A stretch of 64,000 bases of DNA from Cyanobacteria bacterium P01_F01_bin.150 (GCA_039189765.1 JBCCYL010000001.1:1-64000); one strand, 5' to 3'. Counted from the stretch's first letter, positions 16,639-38,316 are shown. Notes: a model not told the origin generated them from the sequence alone. Program-made: numbers and translations.

Positions 16639-16679
16639 AACGGGCTAGGGTATGACAGGCTAATTCATAACGGGCTAAT

Positions 16680-17117: not shown

Positions 17118-17119
17118 GG

Positions 17120-17413: not shown

Positions 17414-17482
17414 AGGTCAGTTTTTTGTAATTTGAGCTTGGTTAATTTGGGCTTAGTTAATTTGGGCTTAGTTAATTTGGGC

Positions 17483-22879: not shown

Positions 22880-24124
22880 TTAAAGATAAACATCGGAAAA
22901 AATTTGAACAATGGAACGATCTTCGTCCGTTTCAGGTTTAATTTGAGTCACGGTTGGGCTAGGCAACAGGCTATCTTGACAATCAACCAAACGCCTGTCT
23001 GGCCGCTGACGTAGTCCAATCGGACGAGTAGTAGCGTAAGTCCTATCATCAATCAGCGTAAAGTCGTCTGGCAGATTGGTAAGCGTACACCCATGGGGCC
23101 GCTGATAGCGATAGCGCCATCGAGTCGCTCGATTTTTGAAGCGAATCACATAGGTCTGAGGCTGAAGAACGGTTTGTTGATTTTGACGACGTGTGGGGGA
23201 CACCTCAGGATTAACCCGGTCGGACTCTAGAAAAATTTCCACCAGCCCCAAGGCGGTCTGAGCCTCTGGAGAATCCGCAAAAACAAACTCATCAATGACC
23301 TCCTCTTGTTGTAAAAGTTGATAGCGACCGGGGGATAGCGAGGCAAAATCCAGGCTCACTGGAAACGCATCTCCGGCAGCATGACGATCGGGAATGACTA
23401 TTTCGGTCGTAAACACAATGGTGTCGTTACCGTCTTGCACGCGCAAAGAAACAAGGTCTCCAGGATTGGCGGATGGAATCGTACCCCGCCAATAGCGGCG
23501 CTGTCGCGGCAGGCGATCGCCCTCCCCAACATACTGACTAGCAGGTAAAACAGCCCAATCATCTGGATTAGGCACCGCAGGGGCTGACTCTAATGGCCGC
23601 AATGCTTCCAGGGTGTTGCCCCCATGAGTTACGAGTTGACCCAGGCGATAACGTTCTCCAGGCCTATAGGCAGGCAACGGCTGGGAAAGGAATGTTTTAT
23701 TCCCCTGCCGATTGTTCCACTGGTTGGAGAAATAGTAGATTTGCCGACGAGCATTTGCCAGTGGCAGGTTGGTGTAGTTGGAAAAGTAGCGATCGCTCAC
23801 CATCAACCAAAAGCAAAGACGATATCCCCGGTCTACAGAAACAACAGTCTGAAAAGTTTCTGTAGACGGTCTAGTGGAACCTTCATGATCCTGTACATCC
23901 ACAAATAGATTTGCCCCAGCGGATTGGGGCCGAAAGACCCAGCGAAGATTGCGAAGACTGCGATCGCAATCCTGACTTGGAATTAGCGTAATGCGATCGA
24001 GAATGCTGTAATCACTGGGCAGAAAGGCAGGCAAAACGGATGGTTGGCCCAAATAAAAATCATGCCAGAGTTCCAGGGTTAAACCTTTTTGATAAATGAT
24101 TTTCATCGCTAAACGGCCCTTCAT
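22880..24124 (-). CDS. Putative cap-adaptor protein (Cis16B/Alg16B-like); alternative start at 24106
   Basis: Located between cap and sheath genes. LELWHDFY at the N-terminus, YVIRFKNRATRWRY, C-terminal IFSDVYL, and an internal CBM-like segment. Confidence 0.6.
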   Translation of the reverse strand: MKGRLAMKIIYQKGLTLELWHDFYLGQPSVLPAFLPSDYSILDRITLIPSQDCDRSLRNLRWVFRPQSAGANLFVDVQDHEGSTRPSTETFQTVVSVDRGYRLCFWLMVSDRYFSNYTNLPLANARRQIYYFSNQWNNRQGNKTFLSQPLPAYRPGERYRLGQLVTHGGNTLEALRPLESAPAVPNPDDWAVLPASQYVGEGDRLPRQRRYWRGTIPSANPGDLVSLRVQDGNDTIVFTTEIVIPDRHAAGDAFPVSLDFASLSPGRYQLLQQEEVIDEFVFADSPEAQTALGLVEIFLESDRVNPEVSPTRRQNQQTVLQPQTYVIRFKNRATRWRYRYQRPHGCTLTNLPDDFTLIDDRTYATTRPIGLRQRPDRRLVDCQDSLLPSPTVTQIKPETDEDRSIVQIFSDVYL

Positions 24125-24142
24125 ATCTTTCTACATTTTTCT

Positions 24143-24721
24143 CTATTCATTGATATAAACTTGGGTGATCACGTCTCCTTCGGCCCTCTGTTTTTCAGCT
24201 TCCAGAGCAATAACACGCAGACGATAAAGAACGAAGGGAACTTGTTTTCCACCTAAAGCACCCCATAGGTGATTAAGTTGTTCAAAGGTCAGACTGTAAA
24301 GGTCAGGTCGAATGGTTACTTCCCTAGAAATATTGCTAGCAACAGGTGTCTCAAAAAATGAAAGCTCCTTCTGCCATTGAAAAAACTCAATAACTCTTGA
24401 TACCAATCGAAGAGACGTTTCGTACTGGTTATGTAATGCCGAAAATAAAATAAACAAATTTAGATGAACTGGGGGATTTTTGTAGATGGTACGCCCCTCG
24501 CTGACCCGATAAGACGGAATATTTTTTAAGGTTGATTCTTCCTGAACATTAACTAGGCTCATGACCACATGGCCATTAAGCTGGTTATTCCCGCCTCCCA
24601 ACTCTTCGGCCATCGCAATATTCTCCACCAAAACAATTTGCCCCGGCCCAAGCTCTGGTTCAAATTCTAGAATATAGCTCTGCAAGTTAAGCTGAACAAG
24701 TCTGATTGCGTCGGAAATCAT
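24143..24721 (-). CDS. Cap / tail terminator protein (DUF4255, Afp16/Pvc16-like)
   Basis: SLVNVQEE...PPVHLNLFILF...LTFEQLNHLWGALGGKQVPFVLYRLR; first gene of the CIS operon. Confidence 0.88.
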   Translation of the reverse strand: MISDAIRLVQLNLQSYILEFEPELGPGQIVLVENIAMAEELGGGNNQLNGHVVMSLVNVQEESTLKNIPSYRVSEGRTIYKNPPVHLNLFILFSALHNQYETSLRLVSRVIEFFQWQKELSFFETPVASNISREVTIRPDLYSLTFEQLNHLWGALGGKQVPFVLYRLRVIALEAEKQRAEGDVITQVYINE

Positions 24722-25225
24722 AGGGCTATAAAGACTGACTTAGGTAGGGACAAAAATCAAAACCGCACAATATGGCTACCCTGCAAAAATATATAAGACT
24801 TACTGCCCTTAAATAGCAATGGCTCCTTTCGTACGACTTTTTATACAAAGCCGTAACCAATAGGAAGCCAAACCGATAGCATACTTGTTCCAACAGCAAC
24901 TAACAGCTTCCGCTGCTTTTATGCAGGATAGAAGGCTAAATAATTTGTTCGATATCTGGCAGTATCTATATCTAAAGTTCAGTCTTGCATGAAAACAGAT
25001 GACGACATCTTCTACCCAAAAAAAAGATATTTTTTTTAATATTGGAGTCTCTATTATGAATTGTTGTTATAAATAAACAAGAAGGATATAGAAAAGTAAT
25101 TCAATATGAGCGGCTTATCATTTAAGCGGGAAAATCCTCTAGCAGTTTGTCGGCGAAAAATGGGGTTACTCCCGACTTCACCAAAAGTGATTAAAAGCCC
25201 CAATAGCCTGTTAATCGACAGATGT
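24722..25225 (-). promoter_or_regulatory. AT-rich intergenic region, likely promoter of the CIS operon
   Basis: About 500 bp non-coding and clearly more AT-rich than the flanks, upstream of a tightly packed operon. No specific operator could be identified. Confidence 0.45.
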
Positions 25226-27394
25226 TTATTGACAGGCAGATATATTCCTATGGCTGTATAGACTAACACGCTTATTGTCGGCACCACTCACGATCAGAAG
25301 TCGGGAGTCTAACTGTTTGATATCAACGCTGTTCAAGCCAGTTTTTAGATGTTTGATGCGGATGCCGTCTAAATGTTTAGTTTGGCGTCTACCTTGGCGA
25401 GTCAGGGGCCACAACGTTACCTGGCCATCGTCACTTACGCTGGTCAAATAACACCCGTTTGCACTCAGTGCCACATCTCGAATCGGGCTTTCAGGGGTCG
25501 GTTGCCATTGATCAATCACACGACAGTCGTCGCCCTGATCCATACAGGATTCCACATCCCACAGCATTAATCGACCCTGATTATCGGCGGTGGCCAAGCG
25601 AAACGGCGTTTGATCCGCAGTATCTAAACCAGTAATGTAATCATCCTGGCCACCGGGGGGGTAGGGGATAGAAAACTCCTTACTCTCCACGCCGTCCTTT
25701 GCCCAAGGCCATAGGAATAATTTGTTGTAGCGCCCAGCGATCGCGACCCCCTCTTCCTCCGGTCCCACCAACGCCATATCGTAAATTGCCAAGTCTGGGA
25801 TAACGAGTTCACGCAGGGGCCGTTCATTCGCGTTGGGTAAACTGTCCTGGCCGATATACCACTGGGAGACCAGACCGCTGCCGTAGCCGCTAAACAAATG
25901 GCGCGCATCTGCGGTTGTCGCCAAGGCCATCACTCGGTCGTCCAGCTCCCGCGTTTGCCCCGTTTGATTAACCAACGTCCGCCGGGGTTGGTTAGCCCCT
26001 TTAAGCAAATCCCATAGCTGAATTTCACCATTTTCGAGGCCCACGGCAATCTGATTATTATCCACTGGACGATACTCTAGGACCCGCACCGCTTTATCAA
26101 GACGAATCGTTTTACCCTCTGGTCGTAACCTGCCCCGATTAACCCGCCAGCGACGAATGGTTTGATCGCTTGACCCACTGATCACTTGGGTGCCGAGGCC
26201 GTTTAATTGAACACTACTGACCAGTTGACGATGCTGCTGACCATAGGTGTGGACATACCAGAGCAGGGCGATCGCCCCCCCAAAGAGTAGTAAAGCTAGG
26301 AACTGTAACCAGCGGGGAAGAACAGGAACCACCGTAACCTGCACTGTTTCAGTATCATTTTTGAGATCCAAATTGGCCCGGTCAGTACTGGCTTGAATCT
26401 CAATCAGCAGTCGTTTTACCCATCCTACCCAGGGCCGCTTTACCTGGATAGTGGTCTCAACCGCTTGGATTTGGCCTGGTGCCAGTTGAACAGCATCGGG
26501 AACCAGGGTTACCTGTCCATCCAGCGGAACGTCTTCCCTATCGCGTTGCTGAAGCCAAGAGGTCCGCACCCGTAGTGTATCGGTCAGGTTGCTATGGTTA
26601 TGCAAATGGAGTTGGGTTTGAACGGAGTTTGACCGCCAATTTGGCCACCATTGCAAAGGTGAAGGAATCGTCAACGCCGTTTGTTCTACGCTTAGCTCAA
26701 AGTGTCCCAGCGGCAGTACATCTACACTTCCAGCGGCCGTTGCTTGGTTGCCATTTTCATCCGCTGCGACGATTTGAAACGGGTAGGCCCGACTGTGGCT
26801 GTGGGATAAATCCGCTGGAATCTGAGCCAGCAGAGTCGCTTCGTGCCAGCGGTTGGGTCTGAGGTTGAGATGGGTCGGGCTGTTCTCCATCAGCCAACTG
26901 TCCAAGACTGGGCATGATAACGTCAGCGGCAGCGGGTAGCGACTCGCGTTATGGATGCGAATGGGAATTTCAATCGTTTCGCCGGGATAGTCTTGGATGG
27001 TTTGGTCCAGCACCTCCAATTTAAACGGCACCGTATCAATGCCTGGTTCGACTCGCAGCCGCATCACATGCCGTTCCTCTGACTGTAATTCTGGGGAAAT
27101 AATGCGGATGGTGATATTAGCGATGCCGACAAAGCCAACTAGAGGCGTATCAAAAATATCCACGGTGTAGGTACTATGGGTTCCCACGGGCACTTTAGAT
27201 GATGTCATCGGAGTCAGGCGATACCATCGCTGCTGTGGCTGCCCCTCTTCACCCGTGACCGACAACAGCACATGGAAGCTGGCTTGGCGATCGCCATAAT
27301 TCACCACGTCCACTGCCAAACGCGCCTCGGAATATCCCGGCCTTACGGTCAGTTCAGTGGCAGATATTTGACTATGGATAACGCTAACAACCAT
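25226..27394 (-). CDS. Single-pass membrane protein: N-terminal Ig-like repeats, TM helix, C-terminal WD40 propeller
   Basis: Three beta-sandwich-like repeats (V.N.G / I.N.S / L.N.SN), TM LQFLALLLFGGAIALLWYV, then WD40 motifs (SGSSDQTIRRW, GEIQLWD, ATADNQGRLMLWD, SVSDDGQVTLW). Confidence 0.75.
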   Translation of the reverse strand: MVVSVIHSQISATELTVRPGYSEARLAVDVVNYGDRQASFHVLLSVTGEEGQPQQRWYRLTPMTSSKVPVGTHSTYTVDIFDTPLVGFVGIANITIRIISPELQSEERHVMRLRVEPGIDTVPFKLEVLDQTIQDYPGETIEIPIRIHNASRYPLPLTLSCPVLDSWLMENSPTHLNLRPNRWHEATLLAQIPADLSHSHSRAYPFQIVAADENGNQATAAGSVDVLPLGHFELSVEQTALTIPSPLQWWPNWRSNSVQTQLHLHNHSNLTDTLRVRTSWLQQRDREDVPLDGQVTLVPDAVQLAPGQIQAVETTIQVKRPWVGWVKRLLIEIQASTDRANLDLKNDTETVQVTVVPVLPRWLQFLALLLFGGAIALLWYVHTYGQQHRQLVSSVQLNGLGTQVISGSSDQTIRRWRVNRGRLRPEGKTIRLDKAVRVLEYRPVDNNQIAVGLENGEIQLWDLLKGANQPRRTLVNQTGQTRELDDRVMALATTADARHLFSGYGSGLVSQWYIGQDSLPNANERPLRELVIPDLAIYDMALVGPEEEGVAIAGRYNKLFLWPWAKDGVESKEFSIPYPPGGQDDYITGLDTADQTPFRLATADNQGRLMLWDVESCMDQGDDCRVIDQWQPTPESPIRDVALSANGCYLTSVSDDGQVTLWPLTRQGRRQTKHLDGIRIKHLKTGLNSVDIKQLDSRLLIVSGADNKRVSLYSHRNISACQ

Positions 27395-27432
27395 AACAAC
27401 TCCTTTTTAGTGCGTGATTCTAAATCACCGCC

Positions 27433-28833
27433 CTATTTAAATGTTCGAATCACTTTTGCTTTCTTTTGCAGTTTCTGAAGACTGGATAAATCTAATGAGC
27501 GACGTCCCCCAAACAAGGGAGCCTGTAGTCGCAGCGACTTGAGCTGTTCTTCCATCCCCTCCTCACGTTCTGTAATAATTTCTGCCATTTCTGAAAACAC
27601 CCCTGCAAATTGGCCAATTTCATCATCCCGATCTGTTAAATGGTTAATGGTTTTAGGCTCAAATTGCTGGGACTTTACCGCCACTGCCGCTTCATGGAGT
27701 CGTAGGATGGGCGTCACGATCCATCGAGCCACCAATCCCCCCAAACCCATCGCTCCCACTAAAACAACTCCCGCTACAATTAGCGTTGTTACGGTTTGCG
27801 CTCGTAGCGCCCCGGTAAAGTCACGGGCCGGGATGGCCACCACTACTAGCCAATCCAGCCCCAGCTCATCTCGCAATGGTCGCGCCGACATAAACACATT
27901 GTCTTTATTAACCTGCTGGCTAATCAGCATATTGTGCTGAATTAGGGACAGATCGCCATACTCATCTAAAAGCTGGTGCATTGTCCCGCTAATTAACGGT
28001 TCTGGGCTATCGAAGGCAGAGATACGGGTTATTTGTTCTGCTTGAGACACCTCTGTCGAAGTGTCTGGTGATGACTCTGGGGTGATGGTAACGGTGTCAC
28101 CAATGGAACTGGCCACAAGCATGCCGCTCTGTTCCACGATAAAAATCTCTCCGGTTTGACCAACTTCAATGCCCCGTAGAAATTCATTAATATTTCGGAT
28201 AAAGAGATCAATGCCCAACACCCCCACGAGCTGATCGTCCGGGTTGTAGATGGGGTGGGCAGCAGTGATTAGCAGCTCCTTGGCAGTAAACCCAACATAA
28301 ACATCACTCCAAACGGGCTGGTTGGCCGCGATCGCCGCCTTATACCATGTTCGTTCCCGAGGATCGTAGTTAAAGGTGTTATTGACGTCACTGGATATTT
28401 CCCCTTGGGGATTAATCTCATATTCGTACGTGCGGCCCTGAGGCATATCGTCAGCCATGACGGCAAAGCGTTGTCCCTTTTGGACACGACTACCGACAAA
28501 ATAGCCTTCAGGATTGCCAAAAAAGATATAGCTGATGGCGGTTGTGGCCTGTAGTTGACTGGAGAAAAACTTTGCCCAGTCTCGCCGTTTTTCCAGGTCT
28601 AGTTCCCCTGATTCAATGGCGCTGGCATTGATCCGATTGACCAATAGTGCCTCCTGGAGCAATCCTGTCACCTGGTCTTGAATCCGATTGGTGCTACTTT
28701 CCATCAGTCGCTCTGAGAGTTGATGCACCGAACGACGGCTGTAGACAAATGAGAAGCTGCCAATCAACCCGATGGCAATTACCAACGGGGTAACAATCAG
28801 GAGCGGAATGGTTTTACGGATGGAGAGGGACAT
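27433..28833 (-). CDS. Cache-HAMP membrane sensor without an output domain
   Basis: TM1, dCache motif YDPRERTWYKAA...WSDVY, TM2, HAMP (PILRLHEAAVAV...DEIGQFAGVFSEM), then only about 50 aa of tail. Confidence 0.8.
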   Translation of the reverse strand: MSLSIRKTIPLLIVTPLVIAIGLIGSFSFVYSRRSVHQLSERLMESSTNRIQDQVTGLLQEALLVNRINASAIESGELDLEKRRDWAKFFSSQLQATTAISYIFFGNPEGYFVGSRVQKGQRFAVMADDMPQGRTYEYEINPQGEISSDVNNTFNYDPRERTWYKAAIAANQPVWSDVYVGFTAKELLITAAHPIYNPDDQLVGVLGIDLFIRNINEFLRGIEVGQTGEIFIVEQSGMLVASSIGDTVTITPESSPDTSTEVSQAEQITRISAFDSPEPLISGTMHQLLDEYGDLSLIQHNMLISQQVNKDNVFMSARPLRDELGLDWLVVVAIPARDFTGALRAQTVTTLIVAGVVLVGAMGLGGLVARWIVTPILRLHEAAVAVKSQQFEPKTINHLTDRDDEIGQFAGVFSEMAEIITEREEGMEEQLKSLRLQAPLFGGRRSLDLSSLQKLQKKAKVIRTFK

Positions 28834-28889
28834 GGTGGGATTTGAGTTATGGAGTTATGGAGTTGAAGGAGTTAGGGCGTTAGGGCGTA

Positions 28890-29038
28890 AGATCCCAGGG
28901 TTCTTGGCGATGCTTTGGCAACTTTAAGGGGTTTTGTTAGAACCCTGGGATCTGATCACGAGTGGGGGCGTAAGATCCCAGGGTTCTTGGTCGTTATGTA
29001 AGCCCCCCCAAGGAGTCTTGGTTAGAACCCTGGGATCT
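28890..29038. repeat. Two tandem ~65-bp mini inverted-repeat elements (AGATCCCAGGGTTCT...AGAACCCTGGGATCT)
   Basis: Copies at 28890-28953 and 28973-29038 have 15-bp perfect terminal IRs and different cores; a third copy lies at 54167-54231. Confidence 0.8.
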
Positions 29039-30505
29039 GGTGGCTACAGATTGCTGGCGTAGCCAGGTAGCTTTTCGTTTAAGGGCATCGTAATAGGCGA
29101 GTTCTAGTTCAGAGGCTTGCTGTCGGCCTGCATTGATCTTGGTGTTGGGTTTTATGTTGGCAGAGGTGCGGTCGATAAATAGTTTGCTGATTCGCTCGTT
29201 ATCTTTCTGAATTTTGGCCTTGAGTCGGGTCTGGCGAGCCGTTACGCGTTTGGCCATGCGGATAAAATTCCTGGCAAGGTGCCCCAGCTCGTCGGGGCGA
29301 TTGCCTAACGATTGCAGCAGTTCGGGTTGAAAGCGATTGGCTTCCACGGCCTGTGCAGCTCGACTGAACAATAGAATTGGATGCACAATATGCCGGACAA
29401 GAGCGTAGACTAATAGCAACAAGATGCCTATGGTGACAATGCCCACGGCAAACATTTGTCGGGCCAGGATAATGGCAGGTTGAAAGGCTTCTGCCTGGCT
29501 CAATTCTGCTAGCAGAGCAACCTCGTATTGGTCGAGCCACCGATAAACGCCCACCACTGGCTTGTTTTGATAATTTAAGTAGAGTCCTTTTCCCTCTTCG
29601 CCCTGAAGCGCTTGGTCAATGCCTTGGCTGGAGAGTTTGGCCTTTTCTGAGTTTATGGACGATCGGGTTTCCTCAGAGCTAAAGCCCGTGACGATCGGTG
29701 TTCCGGCTAGAAAAAGATTGCGTTCATCTATGGTTTTAACCAGGTAGGCTTCTCCACTTTCGCCCAGCCCTGCTCGCTGTCGAATAATCTGGTTGATGGT
29801 TTCAGCTTTGGGAGTAGTGGCCAATAGAATGTTGAGCGATCGCCCTGTTTCATCGATAATGGGGGTGGCAAAGGTGATGGTTGGAACTCCCGCGTTGATA
29901 TAGATATTGGGGATAATAGGCTGAGAATTCTTTGGCTCAGATGTGCGTTCAGTAAAGTAGGTCGTATTGTTTAGGTCGATGCCCTGCCCTCTACGCGCGG
30001 ATTGATTCGACAAAAGAATGGTGCCATCTGGGGTCACAATATCAATGGTATAAAGGTTGTCCTGAATTTCAGTAACGAGCTTGAGGTAGTTTTGCAGCCT
30101 GGCAATGGTTGTCTGCGCGGTTGTTCCGTCTGCTGCGTCAACGCTGCTACTTACTGGACTATGAGCTACTGGGCCGTTGATTACAGAAGAATTGCCTTCG
30201 GCATCAATTACAGAAAAATTGTCCTCTTCCTCAAGATTCAATGCGTTGATGGCGTCTATCACTAGGGGCGATCGCGCCAATGTTGTTGCTTCTCGCTGTT
30301 GAGTTTTAAGCCATTCGAGGAGCTGATATTCCTTAAGCGAAACGGATGACGTTAACTGCTCGTACATCGTTTTTTCAAGGGTGGCTCTTGCTCGATGGTA
30401 GGCACTGTAAGACACTAGCCCAACCGTCACGAATGACAGCAGCGAGAAGGCGGCCATAATCTGGGCAAAGAGATTTTTTCGGAACGGATTGAGGGTGTCC
30501 AACAT
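28994..30505 (-). CDS. Cache-HAMP membrane sensor without an output domain
   Basis: TM1; Cache motifs GLGESGEAYLV...YLNYQNKPVVGVYRWL...LLAELSQAEAF; TM2; HAMP (RPDELGHLARNFIRM); short helical tail. Confidence 0.8.
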   Translation of the reverse strand: MLDTLNPFRKNLFAQIMAAFSLLSFVTVGLVSYSAYHRARATLEKTMYEQLTSSVSLKEYQLLEWLKTQQREATTLARSPLVIDAINALNLEEEDNFSVIDAEGNSSVINGPVAHSPVSSSVDAADGTTAQTTIARLQNYLKLVTEIQDNLYTIDIVTPDGTILLSNQSARRGQGIDLNNTTYFTERTSEPKNSQPIIPNIYINAGVPTITFATPIIDETGRSLNILLATTPKAETINQIIRQRAGLGESGEAYLVKTIDERNLFLAGTPIVTGFSSEETRSSINSEKAKLSSQGIDQALQGEEGKGLYLNYQNKPVVGVYRWLDQYEVALLAELSQAEAFQPAIILARQMFAVGIVTIGILLLLVYALVRHIVHPILLFSRAAQAVEANRFQPELLQSLGNRPDELGHLARNFIRMAKRVTARQTRLKAKIQKDNERISKLFIDRTSANIKPNTKINAGRQQASELELAYYDALKRKATWLRQQSVATRSQGSNQDSLGGLT

Positions 30506-30526
30506 GATAAAGCGTCGAGTGATGGG

Positions 30527-32116
30527 TTACTGTTGAGCCTGAAGCATATGCTGTCGAGAACTGGCGTAGTGCAAGATATTGATGCCGAGTTCCTGGGCAT
30601 CACGCATGGTTGAGCGGGAAAGAGGCGTATCAAACTGCTGACGGCTCCAGGCAGCGGATAGGGAGCCGATGACCAAAATAATGCCCTTATCTGCCAAGAG
30701 ATACATCGGGCCAGTGGGTAACTGGGGCAATGCATCAAAGAGATAGGGGTATTGGGTTAACCCAGAGTCGTAGGACTCGGCCAGGGTAAACGCTAAAGTC
30801 TCGTTTGCTTGCTCCCACTGCTGTAGCCCTTGGACAATGATATTGAGCTGCTGCTGGACAGTGGTTTGACATTCCGATAGCTCATCTTCCAAATCCTGAC
30901 GAATTTGATGAAGTTCACTATCGCCATCTTCAGGTAGGATGCTTAAATCCGCTAGGGCTGAGGTTAGCTCCGCTTGAACGGTATTAAGGCTATTGAGATG
31001 GGTCAGCGTGTCCCGATCGTCATTTTCAATCACCACCGTGCATCCTTGGGCTAAGTATATTTGTAGCTGCTCCAATTCGTTAGGGGATAGGGCGATCGCA
31101 TCTTCGTAGGAGGTGACCAGCACAGTCGGGGGATTTTGGATTTTGGATTTTGGATTTTGGACGGGAAAGGTGGAACGATGGGGAGTTGAAATGCTCCGAT
31201 TCCCCTCTTGGGAGGGGCTAGGGGTGGGTGGATTTTGGATTTTGGATTTTAGATTTTGGTGAGTTGTTTCCCCTTCTTGAGAAAATGTTGGGATGGATAG
31301 ATTGGTGGGGTTATTTGGTTGCTGGTTAGGCGTTAGAGTAATGGGCTGGACGATGGGAGACCCTGCAAGGGTGGGGTATAAACCTGGCAGGGATTGTAGT
31401 AAGGAACTCCAGCGTTGGCATAGGGATGATGACGCCGATGCGATAGAGGACGATAATACGCCGACCTGGACTAGCTGGTTGGCCCGTGCTTGTACTCGAT
31501 GGCGGTGGCGGAGGTCAATGGATTGGGGGGGCGGATTAAAGACATCCGCTGCCGAGTGTAGGGGTTGAGTGTTGCTGGTGAGATGAATCCGACATAGCTC
31601 TACTTCATCAGCATCTGGAGGGGTCGTCCGTTCATTAATCCGAAATTCTTCCTTAACCACGGCGGTCGGTGGAGTTTGCCATTGCTTTGTGGTCGGGTCC
31701 ACATAGGCCAACACCACATAGACGGTCAGGGAGCCATTGGGAGCTGAATCCAATGTCGTATCTTGATTAATCACCTTTGAGGTGATGCGAAAGGTCATGG
31801 GTTCATCCACCACCAGCGGATTTCCCACTAGGTCAATGGCAATTCCTGGCTGAATCTCTATCCAGCGGCGATCGCGCAGCTCCGACGGCACGCCATCCGG
31901 TGCGGACACAACTTTTACCCCTAACCCAGAAACAATACCAGGTTGATGCAGCGACTGGTAATGCAGATTTTGGCGGTGTTGGTAGTAGTGATGGGCCTGC
32001 CACCACCCCTCAGCTGTTAACAAGGACCCGTTGGTGACATAGAGCATTTCCAACGGCTCAATGGCTGGCAGGGGGGCTAGGGGATTAGGTGGGTGGATCA
32101 TGGATGCGGTGGTCAT
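30527..32116 (-). CDS. CIS-associated protein with fibre-base-like N-terminus and probable DUF4159-like C-terminus
   Basis: GSLLTAEGW...HRQNLHYQSLHQPGIVSGLGV...IQPGIAIDLVGN resembles the N-terminus of the 2065..7059 protein; C-terminal RDAQELGINILHYA. Contains an in-frame repeat insertion. Confidence 0.55.
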   Translation of the reverse strand: MTTASMIHPPNPLAPLPAIEPLEMLYVTNGSLLTAEGWWQAHHYYQHRQNLHYQSLHQPGIVSGLGVKVVSAPDGVPSELRDRRWIEIQPGIAIDLVGNPLVVDEPMTFRITSKVINQDTTLDSAPNGSLTVYVVLAYVDPTTKQWQTPPTAVVKEEFRINERTTPPDADEVELCRIHLTSNTQPLHSAADVFNPPPQSIDLRHRHRVQARANQLVQVGVLSSSIASASSSLCQRWSSLLQSLPGLYPTLAGSPIVQPITLTPNQQPNNPTNLSIPTFSQEGETTHQNLKSKIQNPPTPSPSQEGNRSISTPHRSTFPVQNPKSKIQNPPTVLVTSYEDAIALSPNELEQLQIYLAQGCTVVIENDDRDTLTHLNSLNTVQAELTSALADLSILPEDGDSELHQIRQDLEDELSECQTTVQQQLNIIVQGLQQWEQANETLAFTLAESYDSGLTQYPYLFDALPQLPTGPMYLLADKGIILVIGSLSAAWSRQQFDTPLSRSTMRDAQELGINILHYASSRQHMLQAQQ

Positions 32117-32175
32117 GGGTGGATGAGTGGGTGAGTGGGTAAGTACCGCTTGTAGCTTGTAGGATGGGTTAGCTT

Positions 32176-32206
32176 GTAGGATGGGTTAGCGCCAGCGTAA
32201 CCCATC
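32176..32206 (+). repeat. GTAG-family REP-like hairpin
   Basis: GTAG-GATGGGTTAGCGCCAGCGTAACCCATC; related hairpins at 39852-39882, 40823-40876, 40903-40932, 55280-55300, 56770-56802 and 63556-63585. Confidence 0.7.
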
Positions 32207-32288
32207 ATCGTCGGTATATTTATTTCGAGAAATCGCCTTAGTGGGTTAATGGGTGGTGAGTGGGTTAGTAGGTTAGTGGGTTAATGGG

Positions 32289-33395
32289 TTAGTGGGTGGG
32301 CGAGTGGGCGAGTGGGCGCTCAAGCGCTCGGGCGTTATAAGAGGACATCGGAGTAATCCGTAAATCGTAGGTACAGAAGGCTGGACGTTCTTGGTCAATA
32401 ATGGAGTGGACCAGGGCTTCATCAACGGTCAAAGCTTCGGGGACTCGCAAGATCACGACAAAGTGGAAGTCTTGGCCTCGACCGAAGACGGTGGTGGAGC
32501 TAAAAGAGGCACCACCAAATACAGCTCCCTGGCGAGACGGTTCCACGATGCTGATATGTTTTTGGTCTTCTGGTGTATCGTCGTTGTCCAGGGGTAGCCC
32601 CGTTGCCAGGTGCAAATAGAGCCGTAGCCCATAGGCTGTCCCTCGCCAGGTATAGAGTTCGATGGCACGGGACATTAGGCGTCGCTGTTGGGGCCACGAT
32701 AACTGGGGCAGGCGACGCCACCCCACCCAATGGGCCAAAAACGGTAGCATGGCTTCCGGTGCTAATTTGGGGTCTAAATAGGCCCATAAACTAGACCAGG
32801 TTTCCACATCGGGGCGAAAGGTTCGCTCCACAATGGCCATCAAGCGTCCCACAAAGTCAATGTCCTGATAGACCTGGGGTAATAACCGTACGTAAGGACT
32901 ATGGGGTCTGACCACCAGGGTCAGCGGTTCGGAGAGAATGGTGTCTACCACCCCATCTGGGTTAGCCCCGTAAAGATCAATGCGGCCTGAATAGTTAAGG
33001 GGTCGTCGTTCCCCTGGTGCTGCATCGGTGAGGGTTTCAAAAAAGTCGGCGGGCACTTGAAAGGCGATCGCCATTTCTTTTCTTCCCCGCGCTGCCACCT
33101 CACAGGTCACTGTGTCAGTCCCACTTTCTGCTCCCAGTAGAGTCAGGCACCATTTGTCTGGAATATTGCCCTCTAAATGCAGCGTAAAAGTTATGGGACG
33201 ATCCGTCGGGTTATTTAATCGCAGCAATACCTCGCTAGCTTCCCCCGGCAGCAGCAGCAAACTGGCCGTTTCTAGTCCTGCTGTCCCATCATCCGTTGCC
33301 GCAGATAACGCTATCCCATCGGCCAAATTCACGTCAGGAATTCGGCCTGGGATTAAATCAAGGGAAGCAGTGGGTGACGCAAGGGCTTGAACCAT
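32289..33395 (-). CDS. Phage tail protein (P2 gpI-like baseplate component) with N-terminal Ig-like domain
   Basis: LLPQVYQ...YLDPKLAPEAMLPFLAHWVGW...AIELYTWRGTAYGL...IIDQERPAFCTY. Confidence 0.8.
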   Translation of the reverse strand: MVQALASPTASLDLIPGRIPDVNLADGIALSAATDDGTAGLETASLLLLPGEASEVLLRLNNPTDRPITFTLHLEGNIPDKWCLTLLGAESGTDTVTCEVAARGRKEMAIAFQVPADFFETLTDAAPGERRPLNYSGRIDLYGANPDGVVDTILSEPLTLVVRPHSPYVRLLPQVYQDIDFVGRLMAIVERTFRPDVETWSSLWAYLDPKLAPEAMLPFLAHWVGWRRLPQLSWPQQRRLMSRAIELYTWRGTAYGLRLYLHLATGLPLDNDDTPEDQKHISIVEPSRQGAVFGGASFSSTTVFGRGQDFHFVVILRVPEALTVDEALVHSIIDQERPAFCTYDLRITPMSSYNARALERPLAHSPTH

Positions 33396-33424
33396 AGTTC
33401 TAATTTTTAACCATTATTTGGAAC

Positions 33425-35749
33425 TTAATCGTTAACGACACTGACTGAATGCCCTGAATGAATAGTTGGGTCGGCCCAGCTACAAATCATCCCTAGGGGG
33501 CCGGGATCGATGCGAGGAGAAGGAGGCTGTCGAATCCAGCGATTGCCCTCCCTCTCCAGCTTAAATAACTGCACGGCACCCAGATACCGAATTCCTGGAC
33601 TGGCCTGGAGTAGGGAAACAATATCCGACTGATACAGAACCTGGCCAATGGGCCACCCCCGCCGATATCGTCCACCGGTTAATGGATTTAAGAAGTAATA
33701 GAGCAGGGTGCGCAATCGTTCCACTACTTGGGTCTGACCCTCAGCGGAACGCCAGGCCGGATCGAGGGACACTTCTGTTTGCACGGTAACCCCGATGTAC
33801 TCGGGTTCGCGACACTGGATCTGACAGCCCAATAGGCGACGACGGTCAAGATAGGCTGTGACCTGTTGTTCCAATTCAGGACGGAGAGCAAGCTGCTGGG
33901 GTGAGATGCCCTGGTCCTGTTCGACCGATATGCCATCGACCCTAGGCACCAGCATAAGCTGCACAATGCCAGGGGTGTCTGGCGGTAAACAATGGGCACG
34001 AGCGATCGCCCCTTGACCTCCTTGACGCGCCAACTGTTCAAAATCCTCCGGCGTCACTGCCCGGTTATGGGTTCGTAATAGCTGAGGGACTCGAATCGCT
34101 GCCTGTTCCAGAGACTCAGCATTTGAGCCTTGGCGGGCGGGCTGGTAGTTTGTGACCCGAGCCACATAGGGGATGGCAGACTTGAGTACCGTAAGGGATT
34201 GGGCCTGCACATTGCCTTGTTCTCCGCCGCCCGTGCGGTACTGTCCCATGCGAATAACTGCGCCCTTGGGGGGAATGGCACCATACTGGCGCTCCTGCTG
34301 ATGGAGCGATCGCAGTTCCGTTTGCAGCGAGTTGAGGCTGAGTTCCCGTCGCCCCGCCTCTGGAGATACCATCATTTCTGCACTTATTTCTGTGCTTATT
34401 TCTGTGCTCATTTCTGCGCTTAACAAAGTTCCTTCGACTTCATCGGCGAAGCCCTGGTTCAAGCGTTGCCCCAGTCCGTGGGTCAAGAACCGAGTTTGAA
34501 GTTCGCTGCGCTGGCGAAGCTGGGACGGCTCCCGCACCCGAGGTCCAAACTGCACCATCCCCGTAATCGAATCAATGACATAGTGGCGATCGCCTGGCCC
34601 AGATGCGGCAAAGTCAGGCACCTCCTGCCACACTTCCACCTCGCGATTGGGCAGGGTAACGGTAATCGTTTCATCCGGCTTTCGCGTCAGTACCGGAACC
34701 CCCCGCAGTTGAAAAACTTGCCCCGGACTGCCATTACTTTCCCCCAGCACTTCTTCCGTAATCATTTCACATTGACTCCCCGAAACGGTTCCACCAATGG
34801 ACCGCACCGATATCCCGGTAATGCGGGGAGACTGACGATAGGGTGCTTGTCCCTCCTCCGGTGAATCACAGACGCACCGCAGCCAATGGCCCCGATAGGA
34901 GGCAAACTGAGTGACGGGTAATGACAACGGCAAATGCAGAACGATATCGGCACCTTGGATGGGATTCCCCCCCTGTGCGACCAGGGCCGCAAAGCTAAAG
35001 CCCTGGGTTTGATCGTCGGCTTCACTCAGCAAGACCGATCGCCACTGGACGCCATCCCAGGCTTGCCAACGTCGGGGGGGCTGGAAGGGGTTGATGCCTG
35101 CGGGGGTAGCGGCTTGTCCATTGATAGTTAAGGCTAAAACGTTACCGTTTAAGGATGTACTGCCCTCTTCTAAAACCAGATAAAAACAGTTGTTGGCACT
35201 AGGCTGTTCATTAAACAAATTGATTTCGGGACCATTCCACTGGCCTTCTTGACTGCGGTTCCACACATTGCTGAAGCGATCGCGTAATACCGTCGGTTGC
35301 TCTTCCACAGAGGCCGCCGTTAGCAGATGGCGCACTAGGGGCCGACCAATTGTTAATGCTTGGTTTGTGCTAAAAATAATTGCCGCTTCACTGGCCGATC
35401 GTTCCGTTGCCACTTGGGTGCCAGCGGGAATGCGGTATGGCTCCGGCAGTTCGGAAACCAGATAAAAAGTGAGGTGGGCGATCGCGGCCTGGGGTGGCTG
35501 TAGACGAATCCCCAGCAGTTCCAGAAATGCCACGTAGTGACGACGGGGCACCTGATTAAACCGCATCAGCATTTGATCGGTTAACCAAGCAAAGGACTCC
35601 AGCAGCGTTACCCCCGGTTCACTGGGGTTATAGTTGGTCCACTCCGGGCAATACCGGGGAATGCGCTGTAAACACTCTTGTAGCAGGTCATCATAGCGGC
35701 GATCGTCCAGCTCCGCCTTGGGCAAGTTGGGTAAAAAATCCAGGGCCAT
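33425..35749 (-). CDS. Second baseplate J-like assembly protein (compact type)
   Basis: LPKAELDDRRYDDLL...IPRYCPEWTNYNPSEPGVTLLE...YRTGGGEQGNV...RAVTPEDFEQLA...LNPLTGG...GWP.G. Confidence 0.88.
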   Translation of the reverse strand: MALDFLPNLPKAELDDRRYDDLLQECLQRIPRYCPEWTNYNPSEPGVTLLESFAWLTDQMLMRFNQVPRRHYVAFLELLGIRLQPPQAAIAHLTFYLVSELPEPYRIPAGTQVATERSASEAAIIFSTNQALTIGRPLVRHLLTAASVEEQPTVLRDRFSNVWNRSQEGQWNGPEINLFNEQPSANNCFYLVLEEGSTSLNGNVLALTINGQAATPAGINPFQPPRRWQAWDGVQWRSVLLSEADDQTQGFSFAALVAQGGNPIQGADIVLHLPLSLPVTQFASYRGHWLRCVCDSPEEGQAPYRQSPRITGISVRSIGGTVSGSQCEMITEEVLGESNGSPGQVFQLRGVPVLTRKPDETITVTLPNREVEVWQEVPDFAASGPGDRHYVIDSITGMVQFGPRVREPSQLRQRSELQTRFLTHGLGQRLNQGFADEVEGTLLSAEMSTEISTEISAEMMVSPEAGRRELSLNSLQTELRSLHQQERQYGAIPPKGAVIRMGQYRTGGGEQGNVQAQSLTVLKSAIPYVARVTNYQPARQGSNAESLEQAAIRVPQLLRTHNRAVTPEDFEQLARQGGQGAIARAHCLPPDTPGIVQLMLVPRVDGISVEQDQGISPQQLALRPELEQQVTAYLDRRRLLGCQIQCREPEYIGVTVQTEVSLDPAWRSAEGQTQVVERLRTLLYYFLNPLTGGRYRRGWPIGQVLYQSDIVSLLQASPGIRYLGAVQLFKLEREGNRWIRQPPSPRIDPGPLGMICSWADPTIHSGHSVSVVND

Positions 35750-36285
35750 CAGCGTCCCCTCCCGCCAGGGCGCACCGTCACTGGTGCTTTAGCTTGAATA
35801 ATGGGTTGCCCCGTCGCCTTCGTTTGCCTTATACCTGGAATCGCCTTCGTTTCCCTCCCGCCTGTTTGATTAAATTCGCCTTTGAGATAGAAGGGGTACA
35901 CCAGACTCTGTCGTTCGTAAGTGGTGCGGAGTCGATAGTTAATCACGATAAACACAGCCCCCTGATCCGTGCGGGGACGGGCCAGCACTTCAGCTACTTC
36001 AATGCGAGGTTCCCATTGTTCCAGGGCTTCCTGCACCCAAATTCGCATCAACATCAGGGTTTCAGAGTTGATGGGGGCAAACGCCAGTTCTGATAATCGG
36101 CAACCAAAGGTGGGGCGATATAATCGCTCCCCCGGCTCGGTAAGTAAAATCAGCCAAATGGATTCCCGAACGCTCTGCTGTTCGGTGCTAAGGGATAATC
36201 TTCCCTGCTGACTGATGGTTAGAGGAAACGAAAATCCTTGACCCAGATGGGCCATCCGTCTTCGCTGAGTTACACGATTAACCAT
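35749..36285 (-). CDS. Second GPW/gp25 baseplate wedge protein (possible start at 36255)
   Basis: LGQGFSFP...VRESIWLILLTEPGERLYRPTFGC...WEPRI...LVYPFYL; its stop overlaps the next ATG (TGATG). Confidence 0.9.
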   Translation of the reverse strand: MVNRVTQRRRMAHLGQGFSFPLTISQQGRLSLSTEQQSVRESIWLILLTEPGERLYRPTFGCRLSELAFAPINSETLMLMRIWVQEALEQWEPRIEVAEVLARPRTDQGAVFIVINYRLRTTYERQSLVYPFYLKGEFNQTGGRETKAIPGIRQTKATGQPIIQAKAPVTVRPGGRGR

Positions 36286-36389
36286 TTGCCCTCGCTATAC
36301 GCTGGAGTGCCTTTGGTTATAGAGCAGCCTTAGATCACATTCCATCCGACCAAAGTCGGGTTCGTTATACTGCCAACAGCTGAGGTTTA

Positions 36390-36420
36390 GAGGTGTGTCC
36401 CCGCTGCGTGGGGACACCTC
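36390..36420. terminator. GC-rich hairpin between the NRPS tailoring genes and the second baseplate module
   Basis: GAGGTGTGTCCCC-GCTGCGT-GGGGACACCTC stem-loop about 40 bp downstream of the stop at 36462; no clear U-tract. Confidence 0.35.
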
Positions 36421-36461
36421 ATGAAAAGTCCAGCACCTAGCTGTACAAAGTATATTTGAAC

Positions 36462-37043
36462 TCAATGAAACGGACAGCGATCGCCCTCTTTACTGCCAAA
36501 CCGTCCCTCCACCCGATGATTTGGATCAAGGGTTTGAGTGCGAACGCGACCAAATTTTTCTAGGGTATCCGTTGCCGTGCTGCGTTCAAAGCGAATGCTA
36601 CCGCCTTCGTCTCCCACAAACTTTTTACACACTGCCTTATGGGAGCGGGCCAGTTCAGCATAGGCTTCTACAAAGCGATCGTGGTAGGAATGGAGGGCTG
36701 GGGGTAGCGTAGCAAAGGTCGGCGACAGACGTTTCCAGAGCTGCACCAGCACCGCGTGTTCCCAAGACATAAGCCCGCTAAAGTTATCGGACTGCACATG
36801 GGGAGGAGTCATACTAGGACGGACGACAGTTTCGTAGTCCTGGGTGCTAAAGCTTCCAGCCAACTCCATCGATGCGGCTGATGCCAGCATTAGGGTGGTG
36901 GCGGTATCGAGTTCGACCTGGGCCGAAGGGATGTCGTTAAGGGCGATCGCCTCTTCAAATCGACGCAAACACATTAGCAACCCTTGGACGTTAACAAAGA
37001 AAGACCAGTGAAACCCTTGCCAGGTTTGTTGAACAGAAGTCAT
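36462..37043 (-). CDS. Putative heme-dependent aromatic (tyrosine) hydroxylase, TyrH/LmbB2/SfmD-like C-terminal domain
   Basis: YETVVRPSMTPP...FSGLMSWEH and H..VC.KF resemble motifs of the tryptophan-dioxygenase-superfamily aromatic oxygenases; ends in CPFH. Confidence 0.5.
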   Translation of the reverse strand: MTSVQQTWQGFHWSFFVNVQGLLMCLRRFEEAIALNDIPSAQVELDTATTLMLASAASMELAGSFSTQDYETVVRPSMTPPHVQSDNFSGLMSWEHAVLVQLWKRLSPTFATLPPALHSYHDRFVEAYAELARSHKAVCKKFVGDEGGSIRFERSTATDTLEKFGRVRTQTLDPNHRVEGRFGSKEGDRCPFH

Positions 37044-37205
37044 GGGAGTTAGGGAGTTAGGGAGTTAGGGAGTTGGGGAGTTAGGGAGTTAGGGAGTTGG
37101 GGAGTTGGGGAGTTGGGGAGTTGGGGAGTTAGGGAGTTGGGGAGTTGGGGAGTTGGGGGATAGCGTACTCCGGTTCCCCTCCTGGGAGGGGCTAGGGGTG
37201 GGTCT
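37044..37205. repeat. Heptamer tandem repeat (GGGAGTT/GGAGTTG, STRR-like) plus CCCCTCCTGGGAGGGGCTAGGGGTGGG element
   Basis: About 16 consecutive heptamers followed by the palindromic core. Confidence 0.9.
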
Positions 37206-37293
37206 GTTGGATTTTGGCCCCTGGTTCCCAGACTCCGGCTGGGAGCCTAATAGGGAGACTCCGGCTCGGTGTAGGAGCCAGAGTCTCGGGTGT

Positions 37294-37782
37294 TTATTCA
37301 AGATTAAAAATACGGGTAAGGAGAAGGGCGATTGCCTCAAATCCTTGTCGTTGTCGGATGACATTATTCGGGTCTAAATTGGGATTTTGATTACACAAAT
37401 AAAGAAATTGACGATAGGTTAGTAGGACACTGCGGACAATGCAGATGGCAGGGGTTTCGGACTCAATATGCTGAATATTAAAGTAGCGATCGTAATCGAT
37501 TATTTCCCATTGCTTAAGGGAGATTTTTTCTTTGGTTGTATTGGGAATAGACTGATGGCCTGTGCCTAGGGTGGCGATCGCCTGATTAATCAGAGCAATA
37601 CTCTCCTTAAAAGGACACTTCACCATCGTTTCTTCTTTTATTTTTTCCTGCTCTAAGGATGTTATTAACTGAGCTAATGCATGGGTAACAACCTCTTTTT
37701 CTTGAATAGATAAAGTAAGGTCAGTTGGCAAATCCCACGGCACCAGCAAGTCAAGATTCAAGTTAGATAAATCATCGGTCAT
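37294..37782 (-). CDS. Hypothetical protein of the NRPS tailoring block
   Basis: 162-aa ORF co-oriented between MbtH and the hydroxylase-like gene. Confidence 0.65.
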   Translation of the reverse strand: MTDDLSNLNLDLLVPWDLPTDLTLSIQEKEVVTHALAQLITSLEQEKIKEETMVKCPFKESIALINQAIATLGTGHQSIPNTTKEKISLKQWEIIDYDRYFNIQHIESETPAICIVRSVLLTYRQFLYLCNQNPNLDPNNVIRQRQGFEAIALLLTRIFNLE

Positions 37783-37914
37783 CCTATAAAAATACCCATC
37801 TGCCTGGGATAACTTACTGGAGTCCCTGTTAGCGAAGCCATGCCCGATAGGGTTATAGAGTACAGCCGCAGTTTTAACTGCCAGGTTACGGCCAACTTAC
37901 TCACCGACATATGT

Positions 37915-38127
37915 CTACTTAGCATTTTCAGCTTCAGCCATCGCCTTTCGCAAACTCAGAGGACGCATATCGGTCCACACTTCATTAATATAGTCCAAAC
38001 ATTCTTGCTTGGTTCCAGTTTTCCCTTCCGCTCTCCAGCCATAGGGAATTTCCCGATAGGTGGGCCACACCGAATACTGTTCTTCAATACTAACAACAAC
38101 ATTGTAAATCATATTATCTTCACTCAT
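37915..38127 (-). CDS. mbtH: MbtH-like protein
   Basis: EEQYSVWP....P.GW...[22 protein letters not shown]. Confidence 0.96.
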
Positions 38128-38316
38128 CTTTTGTTCTCCTTTTAAGTGTCTATCTTCAAATGTAATTTTTAAGGTAATAAATTAACCCACCCCTAGCCCC
38201 TCCTAGGAGGGAATCGATCTGTCCAAAATCCAAAACTTGTGCTGAGCATGTCAAATGCGCCAATTGTTTTACGCAAAGATTCTTTGCTCAATGACGACCC
38301 AGAATATTCACCTGTA

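Follow-up and report, generated by a model that had tools for sequence, protein, structure and literature searches.

What can a membrane receptor signal to when its chain ends shortly after the HAMP domain? The question is raised by two adjacent genes, P0001 and P0002, in a 64,000-nucleotide stretch of Cyanobacteria bacterium P01_F01_bin.150 (GCA_039189765.1 JBCCYL010000001.1:1-64000; hereafter the window). Both encode proteins with a transmembrane (TM) segment, a Cache ectodomain, a second TM segment, a HAMP domain and a short C-terminal tail, and both stand in a block of genes for baseplate proteins of a contractile injection system (CIS). TM-HAMP-tail receptors recur at this place in baseplate gene cassettes of other cyanobacteria, and we consider it moderately likely that they belong, as subunits without enzyme activity, to a membrane-associated contractile-injection baseplate, for which they would serve as signal inputs or anchors through contact with other proteins.

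Two receptors without an enzymatic output

The two receptors and their parts are as follows.

27433..28833, minus strand: P0001, 466 aa, with TM1, a dCache_1 ectodomain, TM2, HAMP and a type A tail
27571..27735, minus strand: HAMP domain of P0001, residues 367-421, of the R-x-D-E-I-G-x-F-A subtype (connector/AS2)
27436..27570, minus strand: tail of P0001, residues 422-466 (evidence: AlphaFold2 (AF2) model, conservation and hhalign)
28994..30505, minus strand: P0002, 503 aa, with TM1, a dCache-like ectodomain with an insert, TM2, HAMP and a type B tail
29243..29401, minus strand: HAMP domain of P0002, residues 369-421 (Pfam HAMP, 29.6 bits)
28997..29242, minus strand: tail of P0002, residues 422-503
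29051-29110, minus strand: conserved terminal helix of P0002, about residues 466-485

An earlier note, made from the sequence alone, had described both proteins as TM-Cache-TM-HAMP receptors with a short C-terminal part, and this layout was found: two hydrophobic segments flank the Cache domain in P0001 and in P0002, and 45-48 residues are left after HAMP in the former and 82 in the latter. P0001 passes the dCache_1 model (PF02743) with 85.5 bits against a cut-off of 45. Because P0002 scores below that cut-off (36.4 bits) and its relatives P0033 and P0035 score above it (51.4 and 47.1 bits), its ectodomain is called dCache-like with an insert. With the HAMP model (PF00672; cut-off 25 bits), P0001 falls slightly short (22.3 bits, residues 367-418) and P0002 passes over residues 369-421.

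The absence of a catalytic output domain, also claimed in the earlier note, was borne out, as neither receptor matched HisKA, HATPase_c, GGDEF, EAL, Guanylate_cyc, MCPsignal or SpoIIE at E<=0.01. With neither HisKA nor HATPase_c, P0001 and P0002 are not sensor histidine kinases; with no MCPsignal domain (PF00015), for which 45-82 residues would be too few, they are not methyl-accepting chemotaxis proteins (MCPs); and the absence of Guanylate_cyc, GGDEF, EAL and SpoIIE sets them apart from cyclase, diguanylate cyclase, phosphodiesterase and PP2C receptors. Matches to NCBIfam kinase models are confined to the TM2-HAMP stretch, and those to NCBIfam phosphatase and phosphodiesterase models to the sensor or the TM2-HAMP part, in all cases with scores far under the cut-offs; the match to the GepA model is limited to residues 5-393, with 131.6 bits against a cut-off of 1200. 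A Response_reg domain was found in none of the scanned window open reading frames (ORFs) of at least 120 aa, in agreement with the earlier remark that no response regulator is visible there.

The AF2 model of P0001 (18-row alignment; predicted local distance difference test score (pLDDT) 77.4) predicts a dCache ectodomain, whose best matches in the Protein Data Bank (PDB) are chemoreceptor ligand-binding domains, and two helices (337-387 and 405-437) that make up the helix, connector and helix of HAMP. In the predicted tail, the AS2 helix continues over residues 422-437 and is followed by a linker (438-449; pLDDT<50) and a 16-residue basic helix (450-465). The linker is of low model confidence yet conserved in sequence, and the net charge of the terminal helix is +5.

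Receptors of this kind could be decayed kinase- or cyclase-type receptors, that is, pseudogenes, and homologues at 45% identity or less do bear HisKA/HATPase_c, SpoIIE, MCPsignal, Guanylate_cyc or AAA_35 outputs. We reject this explanation. A word-indexed search with P0001, in which 7,999 candidates were scored, returned 28 proteins, 17 of them at 48-78% identity, and length and tail are kept in all 17: the terminal motif lies 5-13 residues ahead of the C terminus in each, so that these homologues share one end point, and 14 are 462-475 aa long, two being N-terminally short (425 aa) and one carrying a 100-residue N-terminal extension that is apparently a mis-called start. Over 16 orthologous rows (alignment A1, from which the two 425-aa fragments were left out), the majority-residue fraction is 0.85 and 0.84 in the tail helices against 0.71 in the ectodomain, where 64 of 309 columns are invariant, and 0.76 in HAMP; the tail is thus the most conserved region and better conserved than the sensor.

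For P0002, 1.84 billion representatives were searched exhaustively and a single close relative came up, P0032 (61% identity, 478 aa), with the same tail; next come short Cache-HAMP proteins of 425-472 aa (39-45% identity), and proteins bearing kinase, SpoIIE, MCP or AAA_35 domains rank after these short forms. Close homologues that continue into kinase or cyclase domains, or remnants of an output domain downstream, had been named in the earlier note as signs of decay, a criterion that is ambiguous in this wording. Kinase and SpoIIE endings occur among the distant homologues (45% identity or less) and in none of the close relatives, and a hidden remnant is excluded because the downstream gaps measure merely 160 bp (28834-28993) and 38 bp (27395-27432), which leaves no coding space. 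The same ending is moreover found in at least 2,430 proteins (see below). P0001 and P0002 are intact, full-length receptors without an enzyme output, and the earlier argument against two independent truncations stands, since orthologues end alike.

The HAMP plus tail module

A further claim had been that the two divergent proteins end with similar helices. BLASTP aligns P0001 and P0002 over TM2-HAMP (35% over 84 aa) and leaves the tails unaligned, so that the likeness does not extend to pairwise alignment; it does appear at the level of profiles, where hhalign relates P0001-type to P0002-type tails with 90.6% probability (E 1.3e-6), and at the level of motifs. Of 150 homologues, 14 show the loose motif [FYL]xx[LIM]xxx[AS]xx[h]R in their last 45 residues, which is above chance: 3000 shuffled tails yielded 11 cases and 2429 internal windows 7, a background of about 0.3-0.4% for each stretch of 45 aa. 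The motif ends 3 residues from the C terminus in P0001 and 20 in P0002, in both within about 20 residues, and the terminal basic helix follows the pattern [LFY]xxLxx[KR]Axx[LIV]R. The P0002-type terminal helix is also present in P0032, in P0062 and in L001_r1, L002_r1 and L003_r1, receptors from the cassette loci described below.

The short relatives of P0002 carry what we call the canonical tail, of about 50 residues, in which a helix of the R-E-Q-x-L-K-Q-Q-V type is followed by L-x-I-E-I-D and, at the end, by E-I-T-E-T-D-Y-F-x-x-L-x-x-K-A-x-x-L-R. By hhalign, this tail is related to P0001-type tails with 81% probability (E 1.2e-5) and to P0002-type tails with 95% (E 3.5e-8). A hidden Markov model (HMM) of the canonical tail matches P0001 and P0002 weakly, at the right positions but just with both profile ends, the central stretch being replaced; the same HMM gives E 4e-8 with the L065 cassette receptor and E 0.016 with P0062, which is related to P0002. 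Judged by these profile comparisons, the window tails are at best divergent members of the canonical HAMP plus tail family. In alignment A2 the module was defined by the R-x-D-E-[ILV]-G-x-[LF]-A HAMP subtype followed by a helix starting [RQ]-[EQ]-x-x-[LM], and these HAMP and helix columns are aligned in both window proteins and in all 13 cassette receptors.

A profile of 12 canonical tails was run against longer proteins (8,000 candidates scored) and matched at least 2,430 of them at E<=1e-3. The idea that the tail is special to this pair is thereby overturned: the pair carries a divergent form of a module that ends thousands of proteins, and its mechanism is probably generic and not an invention for this baseplate. 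The domains that precede the tail, tallied by hand from precomputed Pfam domains over the 120 matches listed, were these.

Cache(-HAMP): 38 rows
HAMP only: 24 rows
REC: 16 rows
cNMP-binding: 11 rows
Tll0287-like: 7 rows
GAF: 5 rows
WD40-Cache-HAMP: 4 rows
HisKA+REC: 4 rows
CHASE3-HAMP-GAF: 3 rows
CHASE2: 2 rows
STAND NTPase: 1 row
No Pfam domain: 4 rows
Any row with HATPase_c: 1

PAS proteins, too, end in HAMP plus tail, and the module spans several phyla, almost never together with an enzyme. Soluble REC, cNMP and HisKA-REC proteins share the HAMP subtype described above (A-V-E-A-x-x-F-x-P-E ... R-x-D-E-L-G-Q-L-A-R-V-F) in front of their tails, and we therefore take HAMP plus tail, about 100 residues, as the unit. 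The terminal helix also occurs alone, in seven tandem copies with acidic low-complexity linkers between them in a CHASE2 protein (P0182) and in three copies in a STAND NTPase (P0191), a repetition that suggests an autonomous short contact motif. Scans of the tails and of small HAMP plus tail proteins with Pfam-A and NCBIfam at permissive E values gave just HAMP and chance coiled-coil matches, a PDB profile search with canonical tails gave nothing significant (best E 0.31), and a description of the module was not found in the literature, whether by motif string or as a REC-HAMP or HAMP-only output. As far as its sequence distribution tells, HAMP plus tail is a very large alternative non-enzymatic output module without a Pfam or NCBIfam model.

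The tail might be a small DNA-binding element, ribbon-helix-helix-like or helix-loop-helix-like, which would make the receptors membrane-tethered regulators of the CIS operon. The module does end REC, cNMP-binding and GAF proteins at the usual place of a DNA-binding output, its end is basic (net charge +5 in the terminal helix of P0001), and the weak best PDB match is helix 2 of a basic helix-loop-helix factor, not significant at E 0.31. We nevertheless regard this as very improbable: no significant DNA-binding family match was found in Pfam, NCBIfam or PDB, the post-HAMP segment of P0001 is modelled as a continuous helix with no strand, and tandem terminal helices behind disordered linkers fit a folded DNA-binding domain poorly. 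A membrane-binding amphipathic helix was rejected as well, the hydrophobic moments (0.31 and 0.22) being reached by 36% and 52% of shuffles.

In three loci, canonical PAS-tail proteins lie directly upstream of a gene for a 251-252-aa ParA/MinD-like ATPase, which is followed by a SulP-STAS-cNMP_binding transporter gene (L080, 9941-19963; L050, 9956-14550; L066, 3361-8028). The ATPases are 66-75% identical between loci, L080 has two tail proteins and two ATPase genes, and the arrangement is probably one orthologous operon. As a lead, the canonical tail may address a ParA/MinD-type ATPase.

A receptor slot beside the baseplate genes

The block that holds the receptors runs from 36285 down to 25226 in the order gp25-like, Baseplate_J-like, P2 gpI-like, P0031, P0002, P0001 and P0030.

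35749..36285, minus strand: gp25-like baseplate wedge protein (set a), GPW_gp25 E 9.5e-23
33425..35749, minus strand: Baseplate_J-like protein, 774 aa (set a), 49-70% identity in syntenic loci
32289..33395, minus strand: P2 gpI-like baseplate protein, Tail_P2_I match, syntenic
30527..32116, minus strand: P0031, 529 aa, with a Cis13-like N-domain, a low-complexity linker, a DUF4159-like C-domain and no TM segment, directly upstream of the receptors
25226..27394, minus strand: P0030, 722 aa, with three immunoglobulin-like (Ig-like) beta-sandwich domains, a TM segment and a seven-bladed WD40 propeller, directly downstream of the receptors

Nine cyanobacterial loci were compared in all, the window included. 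A genome scan of the best 80 of 501 relatives' loci yielded five with the cassette, and tblastn on plasmids with P0031 added three.

Genome scan: L001; L002, Trichocoleus; L003, Spirulinaceae; L065, Tumidithrix; L077, Arthrospira platensis PCC 7345
L084, Pseudanabaena sp. ABRG5-3 plasmid ABRG53d: tube-like protein, 2531-aa protein, VgrG, PAAR, gp25, J, I, Cis13-like, Cache-HAMP-tail receptor and Ig-TM-WD40 in one row
L083, Kovacikia minuta plasmid pA: J, I, Cis13-like, a Tll0287-like-TM-HAMP-tail-cNMP receptor, a 315-aa ORF and a WD40 protein
L081, Brasilonema octagenarum plasmid pBOCT2 (1-25122): VgrG, gp25, J, I, Cis13-like, then eCIS_core proteins; receptor and WD40 protein absent

The cassette order is gp25, Baseplate_J, P2_I, Cis13-like/DUF4159, receptor(s) and Ig-TM-WD40. 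One to three TM-HAMP-tail receptors stand between the Cis13-like/DUF4159 gene and the Ig-TM-WD40 gene in eight of the nine loci, and receptor and Ig-TM-WD40 protein are both present in these eight and both absent in L081. The Cis13-like gene is followed by receptor(s) and Ig-TM-WD40 in the window, L001, L002, L003, L077, L083 and L084; in L065 the upstream part of the cassette is cut by the contig start. Among the 13 cassette receptors, 11 have a dCache_1 sensor, one a Tll0287-like sensor and one (L002_r1, 197 aa) none. The HAMP connector motif is common to all 13, and an enzymatic domain was found in none (E<=0.01); two (L003, 9974-11869; L083, 13510-15084) have a cNMP-binding domain added after the tail. 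Where a locus has several receptors (window, L001, L002 and L003), the first copy has a P0002-type tail; the following copy has a P0001-type tail in the window, L001 and L002, and the two later copies of L003 have other tail variants. This gene context agrees with that of a CisA-like CIS membrane adaptor.

Several side observations concern these loci. The protein atlas holds a 50-member cluster of 633-aa proteins with dCache_1 and cNMP_binding, commonest in Cyanobacteriota. The CIS cluster of L081 has an FHA-domain protein first and three eCIS_core-domain proteins after the Cis13-like gene. A second bitopic protein type adjoins the cassette in L077 (13749-17021) and L001 (658-3105, minus strand); the two are 37% identical and have N-terminal CARDB/NPCBM_assoc-like beta-sandwiches, a TM helix near 390-410 and a long C-terminal part, and no homologue was found in the window.

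The two genes that flank the receptors both recall known membrane attachments of CIS. P0031 matches NCBIfam CIS13_fam with its N-terminal domain (E 5.5e-10) and Pfam DUF4159 (E 3.3e-4); its family comprises 210 proteins, and all named rows but one (Pseudomonadota) are cyanobacterial, among the matches listed. In the thylakoid-anchored CIS of Anabaena, a fibre-like Cis13 joins the baseplate to the membrane via a TM helix, and there is a Cis12 extension (PMC8894136); P0031 shares the CIS13 family match of its N-terminal domain and differs in having no TM segment and a DUF4159-like C-terminal domain. P0030 has orthologues in L001, L002, L003, L065, L077, L083 and L084. The TM segment is kept in six of six orthologues, and none has an N-terminal hydrophobic segment (signal peptide). 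An AF2 model (6-row alignment, pLDDT 80.4) places the beta-sandwich domains at 1-354, the TM helix at 360-384 and the propeller at 391-715.

This predicted layout, with a cytoplasmic N terminus and an extracytoplasmic C-terminal domain, is that of CisA in the cytoplasmic CIS of Streptomyces coelicolor, which is a bitopic N-in/C-out membrane adaptor, encoded in the CIS cluster, required for contraction and absent from the purified particle (PMC12237407). The likeness is one of layout; no relation in sequence was seen, and none was tested for. CisA combines a disordered N terminus with a substrate-binding-like C-terminal domain, whereas P0030 has three Ig-like domains and a WD40 propeller, and CisA is not accompanied by HAMP receptors.

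A group of receptors of about 750 aa (P0044, P0045, P0060, P0065, P0072 and P0250) carries a WD40 domain inserted in the periplasmic Cache domain and ends in canonical HAMP plus tail; a WD40 propeller inside an extracytoplasmic bacterial sensor domain is unusual. The WD40 domain of these fusions is placed in the segment between TM1 and TM2 and hence on the side of the sensor. The propeller of P0030, which shows a generic likeness to theirs (21% identity), accordingly more likely faces the outside world or the Cache domains than the tails. On the modelled topology it is probably on the other side of the membrane than the tail; the propeller is thus disfavoured as a docking site of the tail, and a cytoplasmic contact would be with the Ig-like N-terminal domains or with baseplate proteins. 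The earlier note's proposal that the tail is a contact output onto the Ig-TM-WD40 protein or the baseplate hence keeps the support of synteny in eight of nine loci, loses the propeller as a probable target and, for the contact itself, stays conditional.

The proposed baseplate contact and its alternatives

How the cassette receptors relate to one another was addressed with a maximum-likelihood tree of 62 Cache-HAMP proteins, hand-picked from several hundred, with sequences that bear an output domain shortened to their first 480-520 residues. The cassette receptors are scattered over no fewer than three positions: a clade with the P0001 group, including two L003 copies (100/99); a clade of L003_r1, L077, L065 and L084 (95/85); and the pair of P0002 and P0032, nested within proteins that have a canonical tail or a kinase or SpoIIE ending. 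One dedicated receptor lineage is ruled out by this tree (62 rows). Tail-ended P0035 is sister to SpoIIE-ended P0037 (100/99), and this interleaving of tail-ended and enzyme-ended forms points to output swapping and not to pseudogenisation. The tree positions further suggest that the one operon slot has been filled from more than one sensor lineage.

If the receptors are input or anchor subunits of the baseplate, the pathway may be pictured as follows. P0001 and P0002 would presumably be dimers, each chain with TM1, a periplasmic dCache domain, TM2 and HAMP, and their sole cytoplasmic output would be the extension of ~45-80 residues, that is, the continued AS2 helix, a short conserved linker and the terminal basic helix. 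Ligand binding by the Cache domain could, through TM2 and HAMP, change how the tethered terminal helix is packed or exposed. This helix would touch a partner in the cytoplasm, which could be the Ig-like region of P0030, a baseplate protein or the Cis13-like subunit. Membrane docking, assembly or firing of the baseplate would thereby respond to an external signal, with neither phosphorylation nor a second messenger involved. The fuller version, in which the receptors are a ligand-gated CIS input that acts via HAMP and tail straight onto a membrane-docked baseplate, and the module is a widespread protein-contact output domain across phyla, we put forward tentatively.

The main rival dispenses with ligand switching: receptors and Ig-TM-WD40 protein would be structural anchors that tether the complex of baseplate and Cis13-like protein, with the Cache domain as baggage or for localisation. 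In its favour, P0031 has no TM segment, and the Anabaena CIS is anchored by the TM helix of Cis13 (PMC8894136); CisA offers a precedent for a membrane adaptor, sensor domains are interchangeable among cassette receptors, and one of these receptors, L002_r1 (197 aa), consists of TM, HAMP and tail without any sensor domain. Even so, we think a purely passive anchor rather unlikely. A full dCache domain is kept in 11 of the 13 receptors, with a conserved fold of the ligand-binding type and, among P0001 orthologues, the 64 invariant columns of 309 noted above; HAMP, a signal-converting module that is hard to square with passive anchoring, is retained in every copy; and two receptors have gained a cNMP-binding domain, which is a signalling input.

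A second rival, which we regard as unlikely, is that the tail addresses a general partner outside the baseplate, for example a ParA/MinD-like ATPase, and that its place in the cassette reflects co-regulation or hitch-hiking. The occurrence of HAMP plus tail on REC, cNMP, GAF, PAS and CHASE2 proteins in several phyla, the ATPase and transporter genes beside the canonical tail in L050, L066 and L080, and the polyphyly of the cassette receptors all accord with it. The slot is nevertheless fixed in eight loci, including Arthrospira, Spirulinaceae, Trichocoleus, Tumidithrix, Pseudanabaena and Kovacikia; receptor and WD40 protein come and go together (both in eight loci, neither in one); the entry of separate sensor lineages into the same slot argues for selection on the slot; and a ParA-like gene was found neither in the window nor in the cassette loci.

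Several findings weigh against a baseplate subunit that acts by contact. The cassette receptors are not one clade, well-supported branches forcing at least six label changes, and their tails vary considerably between lineages, which is awkward for a single conserved docking site. The link to an injection machine is direct just in L084 and L081 and given by adjacency in the window, in each case through gene order alone; L077, L003, L065 and L083 have housekeeping genes on their flanks and no sheath, tube or spike gene within 10-12 kb. With L002_r1, which has no sensor domain, a structural role fits as well as signalling. The canonical-tail HMM gives no significant score with the window tails (E 2.5 for P0001, E 4 for P0002), so that their homology rests on profile-profile scores of short helix-rich segments, in which composition bias is possible, and the terminal helices are no more amphipathic than shuffled versions. 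Finally, thousands of canonical-module proteins have no baseplate genes nearby, and in three orthologous loci the canonical tail adjoins a ParA/MinD-like ATPase instead; the general partner may lie outside the cassette.

As to the rest of the window, coding across all 64 kb is on the minus strand. A non-ribosomal peptide synthetase cluster occupies 63899 down to 38317, immediately upstream of the cassette, and includes a class-III aminotransferase, a methyltransferase, several C-A-T modules, TubC-type docking domains, a nitroreductase-containing module and a CmlA-like diiron beta-hydroxylase with a thioester-reductase-type NAD_binding_4 domain. A second, complete contractile-injection set takes up the stretch between 24721 and position 3: a Pvc16-like protein, sheath, three tube-family genes, VgrG, PAAR (17123-17416), a second gp25, a Baseplate_J of 1360 aa, two very large proteins and a CIS tape-measure protein. 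The window thus has two distinct baseplate sets. Set a (33425-36285) consists of gp25, the 774-aa Baseplate_J, P2_I and the Cis13-like protein, and does not itself include VgrG, PAAR or a sheath; set b (12556-17416), with VgrG, PAAR, the second gp25 and the 1360-aa Baseplate_J, lies inside the complete sheath, tube and tape-measure cluster. The plasmid clusters of Pseudanabaena and Brasilonema have set a and no other baseplate set. No family match was obtained for two ORFs upstream of the set a gp25 (36462-37043, 193 aa; 37294-37782, 162 aa), for a 414-aa ORF between the Pvc16-like and sheath genes (22880-24124) or for ORFs of 1576 and 1664 aa (within 2065-11782) between the second baseplate set and the tape-measure gene. 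A promoter and terminator scan of 24000-38500 gave fewer sites than shuffles did, and operon boundaries could not be drawn from it.

The input half of P0001 and P0002 (TM1, dCache, TM2, HAMP) is that of canonical HAMP receptors such as methyl-accepting chemotaxis proteins, NarX/NarQ-type kinases and the dCache chemoreceptors PctA, Tlp3 and Mlp24; the difference lies in the output, the two proteins having no MCP signalling, DHp/CA, GGDEF, cyclase or PP2C domain and ending 45-82 residues past HAMP. High-abundance chemoreceptors of E. coli recruit CheR/CheB through a C-terminal tethered pentapeptide, which likewise is a short conserved C-terminal element behind a flexible linker that acts by partner binding; it differs in sequence and length, and is accessory to the MCP signalling domain and not the sole output. 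In type VI secretion, post-translational control by the TagQRST-PpkA-Fha1-PppA threonine-phosphorylation pathway carries an envelope signal across the membrane and triggers assembly or firing of the contractile machine at the baseplate without new transcription, by means of a kinase, a phosphatase and an FHA protein. The cassette described here has no kinase, phosphatase or FHA gene, and its receptors have no enzyme. Our literature search found nothing that combines contractile injection with a Cache domain or, among the titles and abstract openings listed, HAMP or WD40 with cyanobacterial baseplates; DUF4159 came up in a single paper, an article on the Pfam database, and the main text of the Anabaena CIS study mentions neither HAMP, Cache, WD40 nor a sensor (PMC8894136). 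CIS membrane adaptors and sensor-triggered type VI firing are thus known kinds, whereas HAMP receptors in a baseplate operon that act by a contact tail would be new.

Outside the type VI field, the cues for CIS docking and firing are largely open, and the conserved receptor slot offers a testable candidate for direct coupling of sensor to machine, with Pseudanabaena sp. ABRG5-3 and Arthrospira platensis PCC 7345 as candidate carriers. If the coupling is real, the place or time of docking or firing would be set by a chemical signal from the cell's surroundings. Beyond these cassettes, HAMP plus tail replaces enzymatic outputs on many sensors, and its partner would explain a class of 'output-less' signalling proteins.

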